NCBI RefSeq assembly: GCF_039982735.1
Contig: NZ_JBDWXV010000003.1
Span: 76,898-140,897 of the forward strand
Reading direction: 5' to 3'
DNA from: Saccharospirillum sp.
GTDB taxonomy: Bacteria; Pseudomonadota; Gammaproteobacteria; Pseudomonadales; Natronospirillaceae
Length of the DNA: 64,000 bases
Shown: piece by piece, positions 5,909 through 14,543 of the stretch
How the letters are laid out: each line of letters starts with the position of its first letter
Position numbering within the stretch: position 1 is the stretch's first letter
Notes under the pieces: model-generated
The model's database searches: none
Told to the model about the DNA's origin: nothing
What the model saw: the letters and a program-made list of their open reading frames with translations, nothing else
Translations under genes and position numbers: made by a program

Positions 5909-7993
5909 CTACAACTGGAATCGTTTAATCGCCTGGTCAAGATGATCGGCGATTTCATTAAGTTCGGCGGTTCTCTGAACAGTCGACTCAAAGTCTGCTG
6001 CCACGACGGCACCAGTGTCACTAATGGTATTGGTGCGTTTGGTGATGTCTTCCGAGACCGCCTGCTGTTCGTCCGTGGCCACAGAAACCTGCCCATTAAG
6101 TTCGCTTACACGGGCGATGAAAGTGAGGTATTCGCTGAATGCTCCTTGCACATCGCCGACGCGACCGGAAATGTCATTCGCATCTTTTACGCTGGTAGAG
6201 ATAGACGCTACCGCCTCCCGGGACCCTGCCATCACACAGTCTATTTTTTCCGCAATTTCCTGGGTGTAGGTTTGCGTGCGACTGGCCAGTGTACGAACTT
6301 CATCGGCCACAACGGCAAACCCTCTTCCCTGCTCGCCAGCTCGTGCTGCTTCAATAGCAGCGTTGAGAGCCAGAAGATTGGTTTGCTCTGTGATATTTCT
6401 GATTACGTCGAGAATCTGGTCAATACCGGCTACTTCGCCATCAAGCGTCTCTATAACACCGGTCGCTTCCTGCATGGAAACGGTCAGTTTTTGATTGGAA
6501 TTAACGGCGGCTCTGACCGCCGTTTCTATATCATGAGCTCGCTCCTCGCTGCGCACCATTTCACCTGCAGCCTGCCGGGTATTATGTGCCACGTCACGAA
6601 CACTGGCTGCCATTTCAGTGACCGCCGCCGCCACCGAGTTGAGATCTTCACTCTGAAGGTTTAGGCGGGACCGCACAGACTTCGTTGATTCAGCAGTATC
6701 TGTGGAAATTGCATTAATATCGCGGTTAAGGTCAGCAATCCTGACGATCATCTCTCTTATCTTGTCGACCAGTTGCTCGGTCGAGTGAAAAATCTCGCCA
6801 ATTTCATCATTAGGGTAATTACCCACCCTGGCGCTGAAATCACCGTTACCCACCTGCTTCATATACTTGCTCAGCCTGTGAATGGGACGGCGCACACTGC
6901 GCACCACAACCCAGGAGACCGCCAGACACAGCAGCAGTATGACAATTGTAGCCACGATGACGATGTAGCGACCAACCGCTACCTGATCCAGCGCCGCCTC
7001 ACTGATGCCTGTTACTGCGGTATCGACTTGCTGTGACAGTGCCTGAAGGTTTCCGCCCGTATTGGCAAGACTGGCTTGAACGGCCTCTATCTTACCGGGC
7101 AATTCTGAGCGTATATCCACAAAGAGGTTGGTTTGCCGGGCGATCAGTCCATCGTTGGCGGTTGCCAGACTGTTAACCTGGTCAAACAAGGGATCGATTG
7201 CATCGTTATAGTCAGCAAAAGCAGGGTCAGCATCGACCTGATCGAAGATATCAAAGGTTAGAGTGGCAACCGCATCCAGGCTGTCTCTAAGGTCTGCCTG
7301 GGCAGACTCAATAACATCCAGACTGTCAGCCAGGGAGGCATTGATCGCCAGCAAGCTGACAGTGTCGAACAGTCTCTGTAGCCGAAAGGCAAGGGTTACT
7401 GCTTCAGGCGCTTCCATTCGAGCGAGGTTGGTGTCAAATGCCGGACCGGCTTCGGCACGCAGCCGGTCTATTTCCCCTCTGACCTCGGTAATGCGGGTTT
7501 CGGCTTCTATGGAACGCTCGTGGGTATTCATGTTCAGCGCTACCCGTTCGAACTGCTCCCGCGCCTGCTGCACTGACTGCGTTAACCGCGCTTCTAGCTC
7601 TGGCGACTGACTCAGTAAGGGAAAGTCAGTCGCCAGTCTGTCTGCCCTCTCATTGAAAGCCTGGATGTCTGACTCGACTCTGCCACGAATGGTCGCCATG
7701 ACATCCGCTTGCCTCGCGTTATAGTGCTCGGCCGCACCGGTACTGATGTCTTTCAACGTCAACCTGGCATCTGCCAGTGCTTCCTTTACCGGCAAGGCCT
7801 CAGTAACAAGGGAGTTCACACTCTGGCTGGACTGTTGCAAACTGAACAGACTCACACCGAGCATACACAGCACACCAATACCGACTAGTCCAAAGCCGAC
7901 ACTCAGACGGGTCACCAGCGTCAGCCGCGGTAAACTGAGGTACTTTTTCAACACTGTGATCCGGGTCATTCCAAGGGAACTGACAACCATCAC
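5909..7993 (-). CDS. methyl-accepting chemotaxis protein
   Basis: Two TM helices flank a helical periplasmic domain, followed by HAMP (DEIGEI) and the signalling hairpin QTNLLALNAAIEAARAGEQGRGFAVVADEVR. AGGAGG RBS upstream; the start may be the ATG at 7990. Confidence 0.95.
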   Translation of the reverse strand: MMVVSSLGMTRITVLKKYLSLPRLTLVTRLSVGFGLVGIGVLCMLGVSLFSLQQSSQSVNSLVTEALPVKEALADARLTLKDISTGAAEHYNARQADVMATIRGRVESDIQAFNERADRLATDFPLLSQSPELEARLTQSVQQAREQFERVALNMNTHERSIEAETRITEVRGEIDRLRAEAGPAFDTNLARMEAPEAVTLAFRLQRLFDTVSLLAINASLADSLDVIESAQADLRDSLDAVATLTFDIFDQVDADPAFADYNDAIDPLFDQVNSLATANDGLIARQTNLFVDIRSELPGKIEAVQASLANTGGNLQALSQQVDTAVTGISEAALDQVAVGRYIVIVATIVILLLCLAVSWVVVRSVRRPIHRLSKYMKQVGNGDFSARVGNYPNDEIGEIFHSTEQLVDKIREMIVRIADLNRDINAISTDTAESTKSVRSRLNLQSEDLNSVAAAVTEMAASVRDVAHNTRQAAGEMVRSEERAHDIETAVRAAVNSNQKLTVSMQEATGVIETLDGEVAGIDQILDVIRNITEQTNLLALNAAIEAARAGEQGRGFAVVADEVRTLASRTQTYTQEIAEKIDCVMAGSREAVASISTSVKDANDISGRVGDVQGAFSEYLTFIARVSELNGQVSVATDEQQAVSEDITKRTNTISDTGAVVAADFESTVQRTAELNEIADHLDQAIKRFQL

Positions 7994-8187
7994 GGCCTCC
8001 TATTTGTTATTTTGGCCAGTGGTCTATAGATATTTTCTGTCACTGTTTGCTTTATCAGCAAGCCCCGGTTTCAGGCCGTTGCCACCGACATAGCACGCTA
8101 TCTCGATGGCTCAACATCCCTTGAACCGGGGTTGATATCAACGTGTTGGCTGTCCCCCCCCAGAAATGGAATATTACGCGCTTATCG

Positions 8188-8586
8188 TTAATGCTTGTGA
8201 CCACAGCTACCGCCTGAACCATGGCTGTGACCGCAGCTGCCGCCGTGACTGTGGCTATGTCCTTTAGCCGACCCGGTACTGACACCCCCGTGCACGGTGC
8301 GTCTACTGTTGACCGAGCCATAGACCGGGGTTTCCCGGCTATTGCTGTACATCTGTTGTGCTAGTGCAACGTTAGAGGCACAACCACAGGCAGTGGCAGC
8401 GGCACTTTTGTAGTTGACCTGGACGTGCTTTTTGAGCCCTTTCATGTGCAGTGCCGGAGCACCCATGATAACGCGCTCCAACAATTCTCCCGTCTCCGGA
8501 TGAGAGGTCAGTGCCGGGTCATGAATGCTGTGGGAGATCTCAAAGATCTCCCCGGAGTCGGTTGCCCGATAGGTGTAGGTAGGCAT
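8188..8586 (-). CDS. FmdB-like zinc-ribbon protein lacking canonical Cys, with His/Cys-rich tail
   Basis: MPTYTYR...GEIFEISHSIHD...HPETGELLERVI matches the FmdB pattern without the CxxC pairs. C-terminus is GHSHSHGGSCGHSHGSGGSCGHKH. Lies 22 nt downstream of the M24 gene. Confidence 0.75.
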   Translation of the reverse strand: MPTYTYRATDSGEIFEISHSIHDPALTSHPETGELLERVIMGAPALHMKGLKKHVQVNYKSAAATACGCASNVALAQQMYSNSRETPVYGSVNSRRTVHGGVSTGSAKGHSHSHGGSCGHSHGSGGSCGHKH

Positions 8587-8608
8587 AGTGTTTCCTCAAT
8601 TCCAATAC

Positions 8609-9913
8609 TTAATAGGGGTTCGCCACGAACAGATCCTGGGCTGGGAAAAGCGTGATGACCCGACAGCCATCAGCCGTCACCACAACTTCCTCTTCGATAC
8701 GGGCGGCGCCATTGCCATCTGCTGCCGGGCAGTAGGTCTCAAGGGCGAACACCATGCCTTCCTGCAGTTCAAACGGGTTCTCAAAGGAAACCAGTCGGCT
8801 GATGATGGGACGCTCATGAAGCGCAAGTCCAAGTCCATGCCCGAACTGCAGACCAAAGGCTTCCATTTCGCTTTGAAAGCCAAACTCGGTTGCTGCCGGC
8901 CATACGGCTGCAATCTTATCGGTGGTCATCCCCGGTCTGACCAGGTTAATAGCAGCGTCGATCCATTCGCGGGCTTTGCGATAGGCATCCACCTGGGCAA
9001 GCGTTTTACTGCCCACATTCAGCGTTCGGTAATAACAGGTGCGATAACCCATGTAAGACTGGATGATGTCAAAAAAAGCCTGATCGCCCGGACGATACAT
9101 GCGATCAGTAAAGTTATGTGGGTGTGGGCTGCAACGCTCCCCTGATACAGCGTTTATCGCCTCTACATCGTCCGACCCATTGTCATAAAGAAACTTGTTG
9201 GCGATGGCAACGAGCTCGTTCTCTCGTTTGCCTGGTTTCAGGTTGTCCGCTATCAACTGGTAACATCCATCGACCATCGATGCTGACTGATTCAGCAGGA
9301 TGATCTCATCCATGCTTTTGATCTGACGTGCATTCAGCATCACTTGCTGTACATCTCGAACATCGAGCCCTTGCTTTTGCAAGGCGAACAACATGGGCGG
9401 TTCACAGACATCCACACCGATGGGCATATCGGCAACCCCTTCGGACTGAAGAATATCGCGAATTTCTTTTGCCGCATTTTCGAATAGCCCGGCTTCTTCA
9501 GCCACGGAACCGCGCAAGCCCAACATGCCGGCACGCCAGTGATCGTTATCGAACCAGGGGTTATTCAATCGGTGGTGTGCCGCGGCACTGCCAAAGTCCC
9601 ACAGATAAGGGTCGGAATTACCCGTAAACAAGGCATACCGGCATATTTTGTCCCGCGACCACTCACCAATGACGCTGCTGGTGAGGTAACGAATGTTGTT
9701 GTTGTCGAAACACAACATGGCACCCAGGTCAGACTCACGAAGTGCCTGTCTGGCGCGTTCCACGCGATACTTGTGCAAACGTTTGAAGTCGACACGTTCT
9801 TCAAAATCAACATTCATACGCCCGGGTGCCGGTATAGGACGGCTCCAATCCCAGCGGGGGTCAAGTGCGTCGGTGTCAATGATGCTCGGCTCTACAATAA
9901 TGTTGTTACTCAT
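8609..9913 (-). CDS. M24 (Xaa-Pro peptidase/creatinase-like) metallohydrolase
   Basis: Creatinase-like N-domain plus pita-bread domain: FDIIQSYMGYRTC, GHGLGLALHERP, FALETY, RIEEEVVVT. Start moved to the ATG at 9913 (GAGAGG RBS). Confidence 0.88.
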   Translation of the reverse strand: MSNNIIVEPSIIDTDALDPRWDWSRPIPAPGRMNVDFEERVDFKRLHKYRVERARQALRESDLGAMLCFDNNNIRYLTSSVIGEWSRDKICRYALFTGNSDPYLWDFGSAAAHHRLNNPWFDNDHWRAGMLGLRGSVAEEAGLFENAAKEIRDILQSEGVADMPIGVDVCEPPMLFALQKQGLDVRDVQQVMLNARQIKSMDEIILLNQSASMVDGCYQLIADNLKPGKRENELVAIANKFLYDNGSDDVEAINAVSGERCSPHPHNFTDRMYRPGDQAFFDIIQSYMGYRTCYYRTLNVGSKTLAQVDAYRKAREWIDAAINLVRPGMTTDKIAAVWPAATEFGFQSEMEAFGLQFGHGLGLALHERPIISRLVSFENPFELQEGMVFALETYCPAADGNGAARIEEEVVVTADGCRVITLFPAQDLFVANPY

Positions 9914-9978
9914 GGTATTCCTCTCGCCCACGGTGTTGTGCCTGGCCACATCCCGGCACTTCACCACAGTGTCTTTGG

Positions 9979-11481
9979 TTATTTTGGTGTGATTCCGGAG
10001 ATCGCCTGGATCAGCTTATCTTCCGTTACATCTTCTGAGGTGAACGTTTTTATTATTTCGCCTGAGTACATGGCAACGATTCGGTCGGCAACATGCAATA
10101 CTTCGGGCATTTCCGAACTGATCACGATAACGGCGTAGCCACCGGCTGCGAGCTCCCGTATCAGCTTGTGAATTTCGGACTTGGAGCCTACGTCTATGCC
10201 TCGCGTTGGCTCATCAACAATCAGGACTTTCGGATGCATTGACAACCACTTGCCAATGACGATCTTCTGCTGGTTACCACCGGAGAGATTGCCCACGGTT
10301 TGTCGCCAGCCCGGTGTGCGAATATCCAGCCGATCCCGATACAGGTCGAAAAGCGCTACTTCTGCACCATCGGATACGAAAGGCCCTGCTTTCATGTCAT
10401 CAATCTGTGGCAACGTCATGTTGTCGCGACAGTTCATGCCAAGCACCAGGCCTTGCGTTTTACGGTCTTCAGGAACCAGGGAAATCCCTTCTCTAATAGC
10501 AGTAGCAGGCGAATTGATGACTGTTTCTTTGCCTTCCAGAAAGATCGCTCCTGAACTGGGTTGTCTGAGTCCAAACAGTGTTTCCGCTATTTCCGTTCTG
10601 CCCGCGCCCACCAAACCGTAAAACCCCAGGACTTCGCCGCACCGAACCTGAAAGCTAACGTTGTGGAATGAAGCCCCACAACTGAGATCTTTAACCTCAA
10701 TGGCAATCTCACCCAGCTCATGGTTAACAGGAGCACGGGACAAGTCGAGATTACGGCCAATCATCATTCGAGTAATGGCTTCCTCAGTGGTATCCGCCGT
10801 CAACACAGAATCCTGATACTGGCCGTCACGGAGCACACTGACCCGGTCGGTAATCTTGAAAATCTCCTCCATGCGATGGGATATATAAACAATGCCAACC
10901 CCCTGGCTCTTCAAGTCGTCGATTACTTCAAACAGGACCAGCTTCTCGGCATCGGTCAGTGAGGCGGTTGGTTCATCGAAAATCACCGCTTTGGCGTCCA
11001 CCGTCAAAGCCCGTGCAATCTCGACCATTTGCTGGTTGGCAATGGATAAATCCCCGACCCGGGTACGCGCATCGAAGTTCACTTTCAGGCGTGTTAGAAT
11101 CCCATCGGTTTTTTCAAAGAGTGTTTTCCAATCAACCCGACCCATCGACTTTCTCGGTAACTCACCCAGGTACACGTTTTCTGCCACAGACAGCTCTTCA
11201 GCGAGGCTGAGCTCCTGATGGATAAAAACGATGCCCTTATTCTTGGCATCGAGCGGGTTGGACATGACAACCGGCGTTTCAGCAACGTAGATCGTTCCAG
11301 CATCGGGTTGATAGATTCCGCCGAGTACTTTCATCAGCGTCGATTTTCCGGCACCGTTCTCTCCCATCAGCGCATGAACTTCACCTGCCATCACAGAAAG
11401 AGATACGTTATCGAGCGCCTTAACACCCGGAAATGCTTTGACAATGCCCTCCAGACGCAGGGCTGGCGTTGACTGAGTCAT
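9979..11481 (-). CDS. sugar ABC transporter ATP-binding protein (RbsA/CUT2 type)
   Basis: GENGAGKS Walker A, LSIANQQ, DEPT, and a second domain with LSGGNQQK and DEPTRGID. Confidence 0.95.
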   Translation of the reverse strand: MTQSTPALRLEGIVKAFPGVKALDNVSLSVMAGEVHALMGENGAGKSTLMKVLGGIYQPDAGTIYVAETPVVMSNPLDAKNKGIVFIHQELSLAEELSVAENVYLGELPRKSMGRVDWKTLFEKTDGILTRLKVNFDARTRVGDLSIANQQMVEIARALTVDAKAVIFDEPTASLTDAEKLVLFEVIDDLKSQGVGIVYISHRMEEIFKITDRVSVLRDGQYQDSVLTADTTEEAITRMMIGRNLDLSRAPVNHELGEIAIEVKDLSCGASFHNVSFQVRCGEVLGFYGLVGAGRTEIAETLFGLRQPSSGAIFLEGKETVINSPATAIREGISLVPEDRKTQGLVLGMNCRDNMTLPQIDDMKAGPFVSDGAEVALFDLYRDRLDIRTPGWRQTVGNLSGGNQQKIVIGKWLSMHPKVLIVDEPTRGIDVGSKSEIHKLIRELAAGGYAVIVISSEMPEVLHVADRIVAMYSGEIIKTFTSEDVTEDKLIQAISGITPK

Positions 11482-12482
11482 ACTTTTAACTCCTGTGCGC
11501 CCTTCACGTTGAGCTGGCGATCAATGAACAGAACCACAATCAGGATAAGGCCGAGAACCAGATTCACGGTTGAGGTATCAGCCCCAATGTAGCCCAGCCC
11601 TGTTCGCAGCAACTGGATAGCAATGACCCCTCCCAGGGTACCGATGATCGAGCCCGAACCACCGGCCAGCTTGGTACCACCCAGCACCACGGCGGTGATG
11701 ACCCACAATTCATACAACATGCCGTCATTCGGGTTTACCGAGCCCGATCCGGCGTAGAAAACGACCGCAGACAAGGCAGCCAGAAAGCCTATTAGCGCAA
11801 AATTGATCAACATATGCGGGCCTACCCGAATGCCTGCGTTGACGGCCGCATTCCGGTTGTCGCCTATCGCATACGCATTACGCCCGTGGACTGTGTAGCG
11901 GGTGATCAGCCAAACAACCAGAACGGTCAGCCCAAACACCCAGGTGGCTGTGTGTAATCCAAGAAATCGAGCCTCGGCAAGGTCGACCAGCGTCCAGTTG
12001 AGGTTTGACGTTGGGTTTTCACCGTTGAACATAAATACAAGACCACGATAGCCCAACATGGAACCCAGAGTGACGATGAAGGCATCGACGCCTGTCTTCC
12101 ACACGATCAACCCGTTTAAAGCGCCAAGTAAAACCCCGGTGGTCAAAGCAAGTAATACACTGGCAACAATTACCCAGTCGCCAATGCCCGAGAAAATACT
12201 CCAGGACAAACTGTCCAGCAGGATAATTCCCGCCATGGCAAAGATGGCCCCAACGCTCAAGTCAATGTTTCCGTTCACCATGACAATGGTCATACCGACA
12301 GCAATGATGCCAATGGGAGCGGACTGTTTGAGCAGAAGTAACATGTTTCCGCCATCCATGAACGCGACATCCGTTAACGACAAGTATTTTCCCGCAATAC
12401 TGAAAAATATGAGCTCAACAACAATGAACAACCAAATTGCGCTCGTGCTTAGGTTGCGTTTTATAAAATCAGAATTCATCAC
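11478..12482 (-). CDS. sugar ABC transporter permease (CUT2)
   Basis: Multiple TM helices; IDLSVG, FIVTLG, GRNAYAIGDN, AVVLGG motifs. Confidence 0.92.
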   Translation of the reverse strand: MMNSDFIKRNLSTSAIWLFIVVELIFFSIAGKYLSLTDVAFMDGGNMLLLLKQSAPIGIIAVGMTIVMVNGNIDLSVGAIFAMAGIILLDSLSWSIFSGIGDWVIVASVLLALTTGVLLGALNGLIVWKTGVDAFIVTLGSMLGYRGLVFMFNGENPTSNLNWTLVDLAEARFLGLHTATWVFGLTVLVVWLITRYTVHGRNAYAIGDNRNAAVNAGIRVGPHMLINFALIGFLAALSAVVFYAGSGSVNPNDGMLYELWVITAVVLGGTKLAGGSGSIIGTLGGVIAIQLLRTGLGYIGADTSTVNLVLGLILIVVLFIDRQLNVKGAQELKV

Positions 12483-12488
12483 CCGCTC

Positions 12489-13460
12489 CTATATCGTGGC
12501 CCAGAACTTGCCACGCTTGACTGAGATATCGAGCCACACCGCCAGGATGATAATGATCCACGTGATGACATACTGGATATAGAAGGGCCACCCAATCAGC
12601 AGGAGTCCGTTTTGAATGAAACCCAGAATCAATACGCCGATGACTGTCTTGAGAACCGTACCTGAACCCCCCAGAAGCGATGCACCTCCGAGAATGACAG
12701 CCGCGAGCACTTCCAGCTCCAGGCCTTGGCCAACCGTATTTTGGCTACCCATTGAACGACTGGCCTGAATCAACCCGGCCGTTGCCACGCAAAACGCTGA
12801 AATGAGATAACAGGTAAATACGGTACGGGCTCTGGGTATGCCAGAAAAAGACGCGGCGGTTGAGTTGCCACCGACGGCATAAACCTTCCTTCCGAACGGA
12901 GTTTTTGCCAGGAGTACGCCAAGAAATGCAGCCAGTGCGACAAACAGGATAATCGGCACGGGCAAGCCAAGAATTTCCCCCTGCCCGAAGAAGCTGAACC
13001 AGGTGCCTGCTTTGTCGTCAATATCCATGTTCTTACCGCCTGAATAGGTCAGCGTCAGTCCATGGATGGCCGAGAGCATGCCAAGGGTTACAATCAGGGA
13101 GTTGAGTCGTAGATAACCAACCAGGAAACCGATGGTCCCGCCCAAACCGAGTGTCATTAAGTACATGGTTGGAATGGCCAGGCTGGGCCCTAATTTATCG
13201 TGCAGATCAAGCACCACAATCGTGGAGAAAGACATCATGGAGCCGACCGACAAGTCGAGATTCCCGCTGATGACGACAAAGGTCACGCCAAGAGCCATCA
13301 CACCCAGAATCGCCGATGATCTGACCACGCTTTGTAGATTGTCCAACGACAGAAACTTGGGACTAGCAAGCGCAAAAACCACCATAAACACCACGAATGC
13401 GATGAGAATGCCTTGATTGCCAATCACCGTAAGAATTCGTTTTCTGGCTAGATTTGCCAT
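12489..13460 (-). CDS. sugar ABC transporter permease (CUT2)
   Basis: LDLSVGS, LIVTLG, FGRKVYAVGGN, AAVILGG motifs. Confidence 0.92.
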   Translation of the reverse strand: MANLARKRILTVIGNQGILIAFVVFMVVFALASPKFLSLDNLQSVVRSSAILGVMALGVTFVVISGNLDLSVGSMMSFSTIVVLDLHDKLGPSLAIPTMYLMTLGLGGTIGFLVGYLRLNSLIVTLGMLSAIHGLTLTYSGGKNMDIDDKAGTWFSFFGQGEILGLPVPIILFVALAAFLGVLLAKTPFGRKVYAVGGNSTAASFSGIPRARTVFTCYLISAFCVATAGLIQASRSMGSQNTVGQGLELEVLAAVILGGASLLGGSGTVLKTVIGVLILGFIQNGLLLIGWPFYIQYVITWIIIILAVWLDISVKRGKFWATI

Positions 13461-13504
13461 ATGGGTATCCCTGAAACCGTATTGTTTTTATTAAGGTTAA
13501 AGAG

Positions 13505-13537
13505 TGCCCCAGGCATTCGATTGAACGCCTTGGGGCA
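13505..13537 (-). promoter_or_regulatory. stem-loop between SBP and permease genes (mRNA stabiliser or partial terminator)
   Basis: TGCCCCAGGC...GCCTTGGGGCA hairpin with one bulge, in the SBP-permease spacer. Confidence 0.5.
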
Positions 13538-13589
13538 TTGACTTTTGGGAGTTTTAGGGCACCACTGGGCACCCCACCCAAAACCGGTA

Positions 13590-14543
13590 TCAGAATACTG
13601 GACGGGTAAACTCATCCATATTGTCTTGAGTGATTTTCGGCGTATCGAAATAGTTCAGGAAAGGAACGTCATTTCCTTCCAGAATTTCAATGGCGGTCAG
13701 CAGAGCCGCTTCTGCGTCATCTACAGGAGACTGGTAGATTGAACCCCAATAGTCGCCTTCAGCCATGGCATCGTAGCCGACAGAGAAATTGGTGGCGCCA
13801 ACGAAAATGATGCCATCGCGACCTGCTGCGCGAGCAGCGTTCAGTGCGCCAACACCCATGTTGTCGTCGCCTGAATAGACGCCGTCGATGTCATCGTACT
13901 TGGTCAAGAAGGCTTCCATCACCTGTTGAGACCGCTCCCGGTTCCAGTCACCAGGTTGCGTTTCCATCAGGTCTACATTGGGGCAAACCTCGGGCAGACG
14001 GTCCTCAAAACCAGCCGCACGTTCAATAGCCGTGGTGTAACCAGGTTGTCCTGAGATTTGTACAACTTTGGCTTCGTTCTCGATCCCCATGTCCTTGAAC
14101 TTGTCGCACATGATCTCGGCAGAGCGGCTGCCCTGGGTCACGTTATCCGGACCTGAGAAGGAGCGAATGAAATCAAAGCCCTGTTCAGCAATGTTTGAGT
14201 TGGTTACAACCACAGGGATACCGGCATTGTGGGCTCTGCGGACGGCCGGAATGACAGCTTCGCCATTGGTTGGCCAGATGATAATCGCGTCAACTTCCTG
14301 TTGAATGAGTGAATCCACCTGGGCAATTTGACGTGCAACATCACCCCCGGCGTCAAGCACGACGGCGCGAACCTCATCATTGGCGTCTGCGGCCGCGATA
14401 AAGGCGCTTTCATAGGTCGTCTGGTAGCTATCAACACCCACGTTATTCTGTGTGATACCAATTCTCATTTCGGCCACCGCCAGGGCTGGACCCATTAACA
14501 CGGTGGCAGTTACAGCGGTTGCTAGTAGTGTTTTAGTGCTCAT
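13590..14543 (-). CDS. sugar ABC transporter periplasmic binding protein (RbsB-like)
   Basis: Signal peptide, DAGGDVARQIAQV, VDAIIIWP, IPVVVTN, SGDDNMGVGA. Rich in acidic residues. Confidence 0.92.
   Translation of the reverse strand: MSTKTLLATAVTATVLMGPALAVAEMRIGITQNNVGVDSYQTTYESAFIAAADANDEVRAVVLDAGGDVARQIAQVDSLIQQEVDAIIIWPTNGEAVIPAVRRAHNAGIPVVVTNSNIAEQGFDFIRSFSGPDNVTQGSRSAEIMCDKFKDMGIENEAKVVQISGQPGYTTAIERAAGFEDRLPEVCPNVDLMETQPGDWNRERSQQVMEAFLTKYDDIDGVYSGDDNMGVGALNAARAAGRDGIIFVGATNFSVGYDAMAEGDYWGSIYQSPVDDAEAALLTAIEILEGNDVPFLNYFDTPKITQDNMDEFTRPVF

Follow-up and report, generated by a model that had tools for sequence, protein, structure and literature searches.

A Cys-less FmdB-like protein linked to an M24 enzyme clade with an invariant Cys at a metal-ligand position: a candidate metal-binding accessory

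Proteins of the FmdB family carry two zinc-binding CxxC knuckles about 17 residues apart in a small N-terminal ribbon, which is followed by a flexible C-terminal region. The only characterised protein of this ribbon-plus-disordered-tail architecture that we found in the literature is Ruc (Rv0991c) of Mycobacterium tuberculosis, an oxidation-activated holdase that binds one zinc via four Cys and is linked to chaperone genes (PMC7448276). Selenoprotein forms of FmdB with a U/CxxU motif have been listed (PMC9312934), and as a rule selenocysteine in a motif of this kind points to redox activity. In this work, we analyzed a stretch of 64,000 nucleotides from Saccharospirillum sp. (contig NZ_JBDWXV010000003.1, the window hereafter) that encodes an FmdB-like protein of 132 residues at 8188..8586, stop codon included. 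The gene lies on the minus strand, as do the other features of its operon described below, and directly follows the gene of an M24-fold enzyme. We refer to its product as the small protein. It shares with the FmdB family a homologous N-terminal domain starting at the initiator Met (MP.Y.Y ... F ... L..P..G...R.I) and the flexible C-terminal region. In contrast to the family, all four knuckle Cys are replaced, so that the positions at which selenoprotein forms occur are lost, the tail contains an invariant eight-residue motif rather than degenerate sequence, and the gene is tied to a single enzyme clade. With Ruc, the small protein has in common an N-terminal domain of about 50 residues that matches ribbon profiles and a C-terminal half that is predicted to be disordered, whereas the Cys switch is missing and the genomic context is a catabolic M24 operon.

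A second set of comparable systems comprises the His-rich nickel/cobalt/zinc metallochaperones UreE, HypB, SlyD and CooJ, together with ZNG1 of the COG0523 family. The small protein resembles these in its flexible segments rich in Cys and His, in its variable tail and in being encoded beside a metalloenzyme; it differs in its ribbon-plus-arm build, shows no sequence kinship and has no GTPase domain, and no GTPase partner was seen among the annotated neighbor genes. UreE, HypB and CooJ have variable His-rich tails, to which we liken the tail of the longer forms of the small protein, and the high-affinity nickel site of E. coli HypB is a CxxCGC motif. For an M24 enzyme, a precedent of assisted metalation is ZNG1, which metalates METAP1 and in a structural model sets its CxCC motif by the METAP1 active site (PMC11672702). 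The M24 partner in the window shares with DddP and prolidases the two-domain 'pita-bread' layout and four of the five classical ligands. DddP coordinates mainly iron through Asp295, Asp297, Asp307, His371, Glu406 and Glu421, that is, by carboxylates and His throughout (PMC4108388). In contrast, the partner has a Cys in place of Asp307, lacks an equivalent of Asp297 and contains additional invariant Cys and His residues. We found no description of an FmdB-like partner of an M24 enzyme in the literature.

Linkage of the small gene and the M24 gene is near-obligate in both directions. The earlier note on this DNA had proposed that the small protein stores or delivers metal for the neighboring M24 hydrolase, and we hence looked for orthologues unlinked to the M24 gene; the opposite was found. 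Starting from the small protein, 46 genome loci were obtained, 39 of which contained an M24 orthologue (76-99% identity). For five of the remaining loci the whole genome was searched, and the M24 gene was located beyond the fetched flank, on the same contig in three cases and on another contig in one. In one 2.4-Mb Luminiphilus metagenome-assembled genome (MAG), the completeness of which is not established, a search of the whole assembly did not find an M24 orthologue. This Luminiphilus locus (L042) is the only possible exception to the pairing; its small gene at 7995-8282 is of the typical short or intermediate form, with no pathway genes within 8 kb. Starting from the M24 gene, 73 of 80 metagenome loci had the small gene within 1.5 kb. 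In 38 loci, mostly with long forms, it directly followed the M24 gene on the same strand after a gap of 16-76 nt. In another 35, short forms were placed divergently upstream at a distance of 61-1473 nt. The seven loci without a small gene all had less than 600 nt on one side or less than 2.5 kb downstream, i.e., they were contig ends or short flanks.

Both genes also co-occur at the level of whole genomes. Among 401 sampled Gammaproteobacteria, three genomes contained the M24 orthologue, and it was exactly these three that the small-protein profile matched in full length (E 7e-61, 9e-36 and 1e-31, with full-length matches defined by E below 1e-30). Kinship inflates formal statistics on this pairing, yet the three genomes belong to different families. 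The other 181 matches in the sample covered little beyond the generic ribbon, at E 6e-13 or weaker; this tally includes one unpublished genome (G296), on which no claim depends. Furthermore, the pairing persists across changes of gene order, orientation and host phylum, as seen in SAR324, Woeseiaceae, Salinisphaera, Marinomonas and Thiotrichales. A phylogenetic tree of the M24 orthologues is split into two strongly supported clades. One of these is paired with short forms of the small protein in 44/44 rows, the other with long forms in 44/48 rows, and at least one of the four short calls in the latter (L069) is an open reading frame (ORF) cut at a contig end. The form of the small protein thus co-diverges with the M24 clade. 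In a third arrangement, the small gene shares one operon with M24 but stands 7-10 kb farther downstream, behind an E3 gene; it thus belongs to the cluster and does not always adjoin the M24 gene.

The M24 partner (8609..9913) was identified by a PF00557 match (E 4e-35) and scored below every NCBIfam equivalog cut-off. Its longest ORF begins at GTG 9967 (452 residues, 8609-9967); orthologues have 434 residues, the first of which corresponds to ATG 9913, so that translation probably starts there. Among solved structures, prolidase and DddP came nearest, with E of about 1e-20, and the DddP model NF043017 matched over nearly the whole length with 104.7 bits, against a cut-off of 600. Alignment to 1pv9_A and 4s01_A places Cys311 (452-residue numbering, codon at 9035..9037) at the second metal-ligand Asp position, opposite the Asp of YNSDITRT in the prolidase and of GICVDISRT in DddP. 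This position corresponds to Asp307 of DddP and, by our own reading of the numbered alignment, to D220 of Pyrococcus prolidase. The metal site of the partner reads D-C-H-E-E, with the other four classical ligands kept. Cys311 was invariant in 119/119 orthologues. The same holds for C279, H282, H284 and C413, at whose positions DddP has neither Cys nor His. The clade is discrete and hyperconserved, with at least 76% identity among orthologues of Gammaproteobacteria and SAR324 loci. Within the genus, nonsynonymous divergence (dN) was 0.008 compared with a synonymous divergence (dS) of 1.06; in most of the other pairs dS was saturated.

Within the 401-genome sample, the next relatives were only 38% and 30% identical. 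The 38% paralogue (L152, G335:C123:4120-8325; match 1507-2709) is encoded in a genome that also has the M24 orthologue. It carries a Cys at the second-Asp position (GYHTCVYRC), from which it follows that the Cys-liganded group would be wider than the hyperconserved clade. No FmdB-like gene was found within 1.5 kb of it. The 30% relative has the DddP-type Asp at the Cys311 position. Database searches returned thousands of relatives of the M24 partner, of which the best 120 listed were at least 78% identical, and it was encoded on more than 400 metagenome stretches. Hosts of the pair in the analyzed loci include Saccharospirillum, Marinomonas, Salinisphaera, Woeseiaceae and SAR324, and among cultured strains both genes are present in Saccharospirillum impatiens DSM 12546, Marinomonas hwangdonensis HDW-15 and Salinisphaera hydrothermalis EPR70. 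By database names, the M24 clade also occurs in Psychromonas, Vibrio, Legionella and a member of the Rhodobacteraceae.

The constant elements of the small protein lie C-terminal to its ribbon. The family set comprised 101 distinct sequences out of 130 fetched loci. A word-indexed search of 5.8 billion proteins yielded 53 homologues, and phmmer, run exhaustively on 1.84 billion representatives, 61 matches, only seven of them below 1e-10. The most distant relatives are variants with TPCKC, TACTC or TPCQC. In the window, the signature SAAATACGCA spans residues 61-70 (8377..8406), with the central CGC at residues 67-69 (8380-8388). The pattern [SL][PAQ]AATACGC occurred in 100 of the 101 sequences, the exception being a truncated reading of 58 residues, and the stretch from A63 to C69 was identical in 99% of the sequences though overall identity in the family drops to about 40%. 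About 90% of the sequences also had an H-x-H close to the C-terminus, and the constant family elements are hence AATACGCA and this H-x-H. Short forms (about 82 residues) end in CGCATG(R/K)PH(R/K)H, which gathers two Cys and two His in a stretch of 11 residues, with a third Cys in some variants. Long forms have 110-136 residues and, counted from CGC to their end, 4-15 His and 3-4 Cys. They contain a middle module lacking in short forms (SN.ALA.QM., SRETP.YG and a basic TV.GG; residues 71-108 at 8263..8376 in the window) and a His/Cys tail. No fused or longer forms of the small protein were found, which given the search method is weak evidence.

The tail of the window's protein (residues 109-132, 8191..8262), which is predicted to be disordered, reads GHSHSHGGSC-GHSHGSGGSC-GHKH, i.e., two GH.H..GG.C units and a terminal GHKH. 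By our own count, the two ten-residue units agree at 8/10 residues and at 21/30 bases, and at the DNA level Tandem Repeats Finder detected nothing in the tail; the duplication is hence old and has since diverged. Among orthologues, the number of units is one or two and the (HS)n runs differ in length, with C-G-H-K-H kept, usually as the end. The central CGC and the imperfect ten-residue His/Cys repeats at 8191-8262 are thus as the earlier note had described them. However, the repeated tail is not a constant trait, as about half of the family, the short forms, lacks it.

The ribbon domain without Cys comprises residues 1-40 (8467..8586). These aligned with positions 1-41 of the 41 positions of PF09723 (Zn_ribbon_8; E 7.4e-8, 32.7 bits), and the FmdB model TIGR02605 (CxxC_CxxC_SSSS) scored 30.1 bits. 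Both curated cut-offs, 34.4 and 31.3 bits, respectively, were missed narrowly, and in the genome-wide profile search the same ribbon stretch reached 35.4 bits, above the PF09723 cut-off. Canonical relatives with YRCAECGH ... NCPECGK align with YRATDSGE ... SHPETGE in the small protein, where A8, S11, H29 and T32 occupy the four Cys positions; this alignment with Cys4 relatives bears out the claim that both knuckles (YRATDSG, HPETG) lack Cys. No Cys was present within the first 45 residues in 92 of the 101 sequences, and one in the other nine, so that the Cys-less ribbon is a stable trait of the family. It is not unique to this clade, since other FmdB-like proteins lack the Cys as well. Other bacteria commonly encode FmdB-like ribbons that have no Cys ('HPETGE' or 'DPETG') and bear unrelated tails, either of the CCGGGC type or Ser/Lys-rich (e.g., L139 1501-1743 on the plus strand, L140 1396-1650 on the minus strand, and proteins P0067, P0078, P0096 and P0103), and loss of the zinc ligands is thus recurrent, or ancient, in part of the FmdB family. 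In the whole 4.7-Mb genome of the window's strain (G000), the Cys-less gene was the sole Zn_ribbon_8 match, and the search, run at E up to 0.01, detected no canonical Cys4 FmdB/Ruc gene. In the sampled Gammaproteobacteria, two canonical relatives have terminal tails rich in Cys, Gly and Ala, for example ACGAGGCGAGAC, and the ACGCA motif may derive from tails of this kind.

An AlphaFold2 (AF2) model of the small protein had three strands and a predicted local distance difference test score (pLDDT) of about 90 for residues 1-40. From residue 41 onward, the pLDDT was 40-57, with short low-confidence helices (one at 73-82). Structural matches of the ribbon model were weak and non-discriminating (Z of at most 3.8 in VIA-align, E of at least 0.3 in Foldseek), and all were to small zinc-ribbon-type domains, the best being RbpA, an MCM zinc subdomain and small large-subunit ribosomal proteins. 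A sequence search of the PDB with the family profile gave no match at E up to 1. The ESM Atlas contained FmdB-type clusters only, with a score of about 0.8, which we treat as a lead.

We tentatively favor the reading that the small protein is a dedicated metal-binding accessory, or metallochaperone, of the neighboring thiolate-containing M24 site, and would put its chance a little short of even. The proposal of the earlier note, as a candidate explanation, thus gains partial support from the genomic context, in which the linkage is near-obligate and the partner has a Cys at a ligand site. Several observations speak for a metal-handling accessory. The constant elements amount to a putative Cys2His2 or Cys3His site within about 11 residues, and the His-rich extension is variable yet constrained. 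A thiolate site in a family that otherwise uses carboxylates tends to need help with metal acquisition, so that the invariant Cys in place of a metal-ligand Asp makes a dedicated metal helper more plausible, and ZNG1 and METAP1 provide a precedent. We also count the predicted disorder of the arm beside a confidently modeled ribbon in its favor.

In such a mechanism, the N-terminal 40 residues would be a small folded module for docking, with the shape of the FmdB ribbon but no zinc, and the remainder a flexible arm. On this arm, A-A-T-A-C-G-C-A and the nearby or terminal H-x-H could form a compact metal site of the Cys2His2 type. The arm might then pass the metal to the M24 active site, or help to hold it there, beside the invariant Cys. 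In long forms, the extra His/Cys-rich tail would add capacity for metal capture or storage. The anatomy, the conservation and the near-obligate pairing with this M24 clade are established by the data; that the arm binds metal and which one, that it touches the enzyme, and which way the metal would move is what we infer here from sequence and context.

A number of findings weigh against this assignment. Among Pfam and NCBIfam matches at E up to 1 no known metallochaperone family was present, and no GTPase partner was found among the annotated recurrent neighbor genes. The eight invariant small residues exceed what a simple metal loop needs and would fit entry into a narrow cleft, as is the peptide-binding one of the enzyme; a segment of this kind could just as well belong to a permanent subunit, to a carrier arm or to an inhibitor resembling a cysteine switch. 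The 38% paralogue with its Cys ligand and no small gene within 1.5 kb argues that a Cys ligand alone demands no adjacent helper. In those operons in which the small gene follows E3, 7-10 kb away from M24, the protein could serve the whole pathway. Moreover, the AF2 model of the M24 enzyme, built with 24 orthologues of about 80% identity, had a pLDDT of 56 and values below 50 in active-site segments, too poor to place C279, H282, H284, C311 and C413. Altogether, the data fit a permanent subunit, a Cys-arm partner or a regulator almost equally well.

The small protein could instead be a permanent small subunit or Cys-arm partner, in which the AATACGCA segment would work inside the M24 active site during catalysis; we regard this as somewhat unlikely. 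Such a subunit could supply thiolate ligands in trans at a hetero-subunit metal center, or act as a dithiol, disulfide or covalent carrier arm, with the His tail being secondary. SoxY and DsrC, with their Cys arms, are models for a carrier. The invariance of a motif made up of small residues would be accounted for, as would the tight downstream position of most long forms, and the extreme conservation of M24 suits a protein with an obligate partner, all the more as the form of the small protein follows the M24 clade. In several operons its gene stands behind a dihydrolipoamide dehydrogenase gene, in some with a TauE/SafE exporter gene following it. However, known Cys-arm carriers do not typically have a His-rich tail or a near-terminal H-x-H, both of which are typical of metal handling, TauE occurs in a minority of loci and is absent from the window, and no fused form of M24 and the small protein was found. 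Divergent transcription in 35 of the 80 M24-anchored loci does not enforce a fixed stoichiometry either. In its boldest version, which we deem unlikely, the small protein would be an integral part of an M24 enzyme of a new type, in which the AATACGCA arm and Cys311, perhaps with C279 and C413, build a thiolate-rich hetero-subunit metal center or form a covalent or redox Cys arm. If this holds true, a widespread marine enzyme would gain a chemistry unknown in the M24 family.

A role in regulation, post-translational or transcriptional, seems to us quite improbable. The small protein would sense metal or redox state via CGC and H-x-H and then block the M24 active site as a pseudo-substrate, reminiscent of a cysteine switch, or control the operon. 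This matches the old label 'FmdB putative regulatory protein', and in the short-form clade the divergent, sometimes stand-alone gene beside the M24 operon resembles regulator genes. M24 enzymes bind extended peptides, and a dithiol peptide of small residues could conceivably fill the cleft. In contrast, Pfam and NCBIfam searches detected no DNA-binding domain, the ribbon lacks zinc ligands, and the clusters already contain LacI-type or MarR-SBP regulators. Long forms are the last cistron of a catabolic operon, and many short-form loci have the gene co-oriented behind a dehydrogenase gene.

A general holdase chaperone of the Ruc type, with the small ribbon and disordered tail binding unfolded proteins under stress, would have the same architecture of an N-terminal ribbon of about 50 residues and a C-terminal half predicted to be disordered, but Ruc is activated only through the four Cys that bind its zinc (PMC7448276). 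The small protein has none of them, and the annotated recurrent neighbors are catabolic genes rather than dnaK, grpE, clpB, hrcA or groEL; on these grounds we rejected the holdase, which is very improbable. In addition, the tail has an invariant motif, unlike the non-conserved tails of Ruc homologues, and one would not expect a general chaperone to be paired so specifically with one enzyme clade. Equally remote is a precursor of a ribosomally synthesized and post-translationally modified peptide (RiPP) or peptide cofactor, from which the M24-fold protein, by fold a peptidase, would free a Cys/His-rich metal-binding peptide: the small protein does have a leader-like conserved N-terminus and a core-like invariant motif, and by the TIGR02605 description FmdB tails resemble those of heterocycle-containing bacteriocin precursors, yet M24 peptidases are known as exopeptidases, the cluster looks catabolic, and we rejected this reading because neither YcaO, radical S-adenosylmethionine, lanthipeptide or other maturases nor a typical exporter were among the annotated recurrent neighbors.

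The small gene itself is well defined. It runs from ATG 8586-8584 to TAA 8190-8188 and is supported by the ORF list, by the Pfam and NCBIfam matches, by the 53 homologues and by purifying selection. Among close relatives, dN/dS was 0.19 for the ribbon, 0.13 for the linker, 0.02 (0.019) for the motif, 0.13 for the middle module and 0.11 for the tail. Every region, the tail included, is hence constrained and not drifting, and conservation together with dN/dS rules out a chance ORF. A Shine-Dalgarno-like GAGGA, read from the sequence, is located at 8593..8597, 6 nt 5' of the ATG and 11 nt past the M24 stop codon. The gene starts 22 nt past this stop and is the last of an operon encoding a substrate-binding protein, two permeases, an ATPase and the M24 enzyme; that it closes the M24/ABC (ATP-binding cassette) operon had been claimed before and holds. 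The promoter scan found no promoter-like site in 7900-8700, which fits co-transcription with the M24 gene. In the 194 nt up to the next gene, a methyl-accepting chemotaxis gene that is not kept downstream in all relatives, the scan predicted no terminator on the strand of the small gene.

The upstream operon genes (9979..14543) were assigned from ORFs and an ABC_tran match. They encode the periplasmic binding protein (13590-14543), two permeases and a two-domain ABC ATPase (9979-11481), with successive gaps of 129, 6, -4 and 11 nt in this part of the operon. Their order is kept in the Saccharospirillaceae loci L001-L004 and L006; L007 ends before the binding-protein gene. Without exception, the pair is found within a catabolic cluster. 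Its recurrent neighbors are M24, aldehyde dehydrogenase (ALDH), E1/E2/E3, SDR, VOC, ABC or tripartite ATP-independent periplasmic (TRAP) transporters, LacI and TauE. In other hosts, the pair travels with a larger gene set (L019 834-10182, L024 459-12605, L008 4281-15061) that comprises ALDH, a fused or split AcoAB-like E1, VOC/glyoxalase, E2, Lpd (E3), TauE/SafE, LacI, a HIBADH-like dehydrogenase and GST, and the transporter of these clusters is of the CUT2 ABC or TRAP type. These genes hint at an anionic, possibly sulfonated, hydroxy-ketone substrate. The window's own cluster is without TauE, VOC and E3, and we dismissed a link to organosulfonates via TauE/SafE, as the exporter gene is present in a minority of loci only and not in the window. 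In loci of the Woeseiaceae type (L029 8280-13596, also L028, L034 and L039), SCO1/SenC, beta-propeller, DsbD_TM and cupredoxin-like genes are convergent to the short-form gene, which may be coincidence or a link to copper.

Taken together, the small protein appears, as judged from its sequence, to be a novel variant of the FmdB family that is paired with an undescribed, putatively Cys-liganded clade of M24 enzymes. New in this work are the family-wide [SL][PAQ]AATACGC motif, the two-way linkage with M24 and the invariant Cys in place of Asp in the M24 clade, and the pair is no curiosity of a single genome. If the small protein is a metal donor, its partner would, to our knowledge, be the first known bacterial M24 enzyme with a dedicated helper, and the pair would represent a GTPase-independent counterpart of the eukaryotic ZNG1-METAP1 system. 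The poorly understood FmdB family would then have a second defined function. Heterologous expression of the M24 enzyme without its partner would probably fail in that case, which matters for the search for its substrate. Alternatively, should the small protein prove to be a subunit or Cys arm, a new type of active site would be added to the M24 family.

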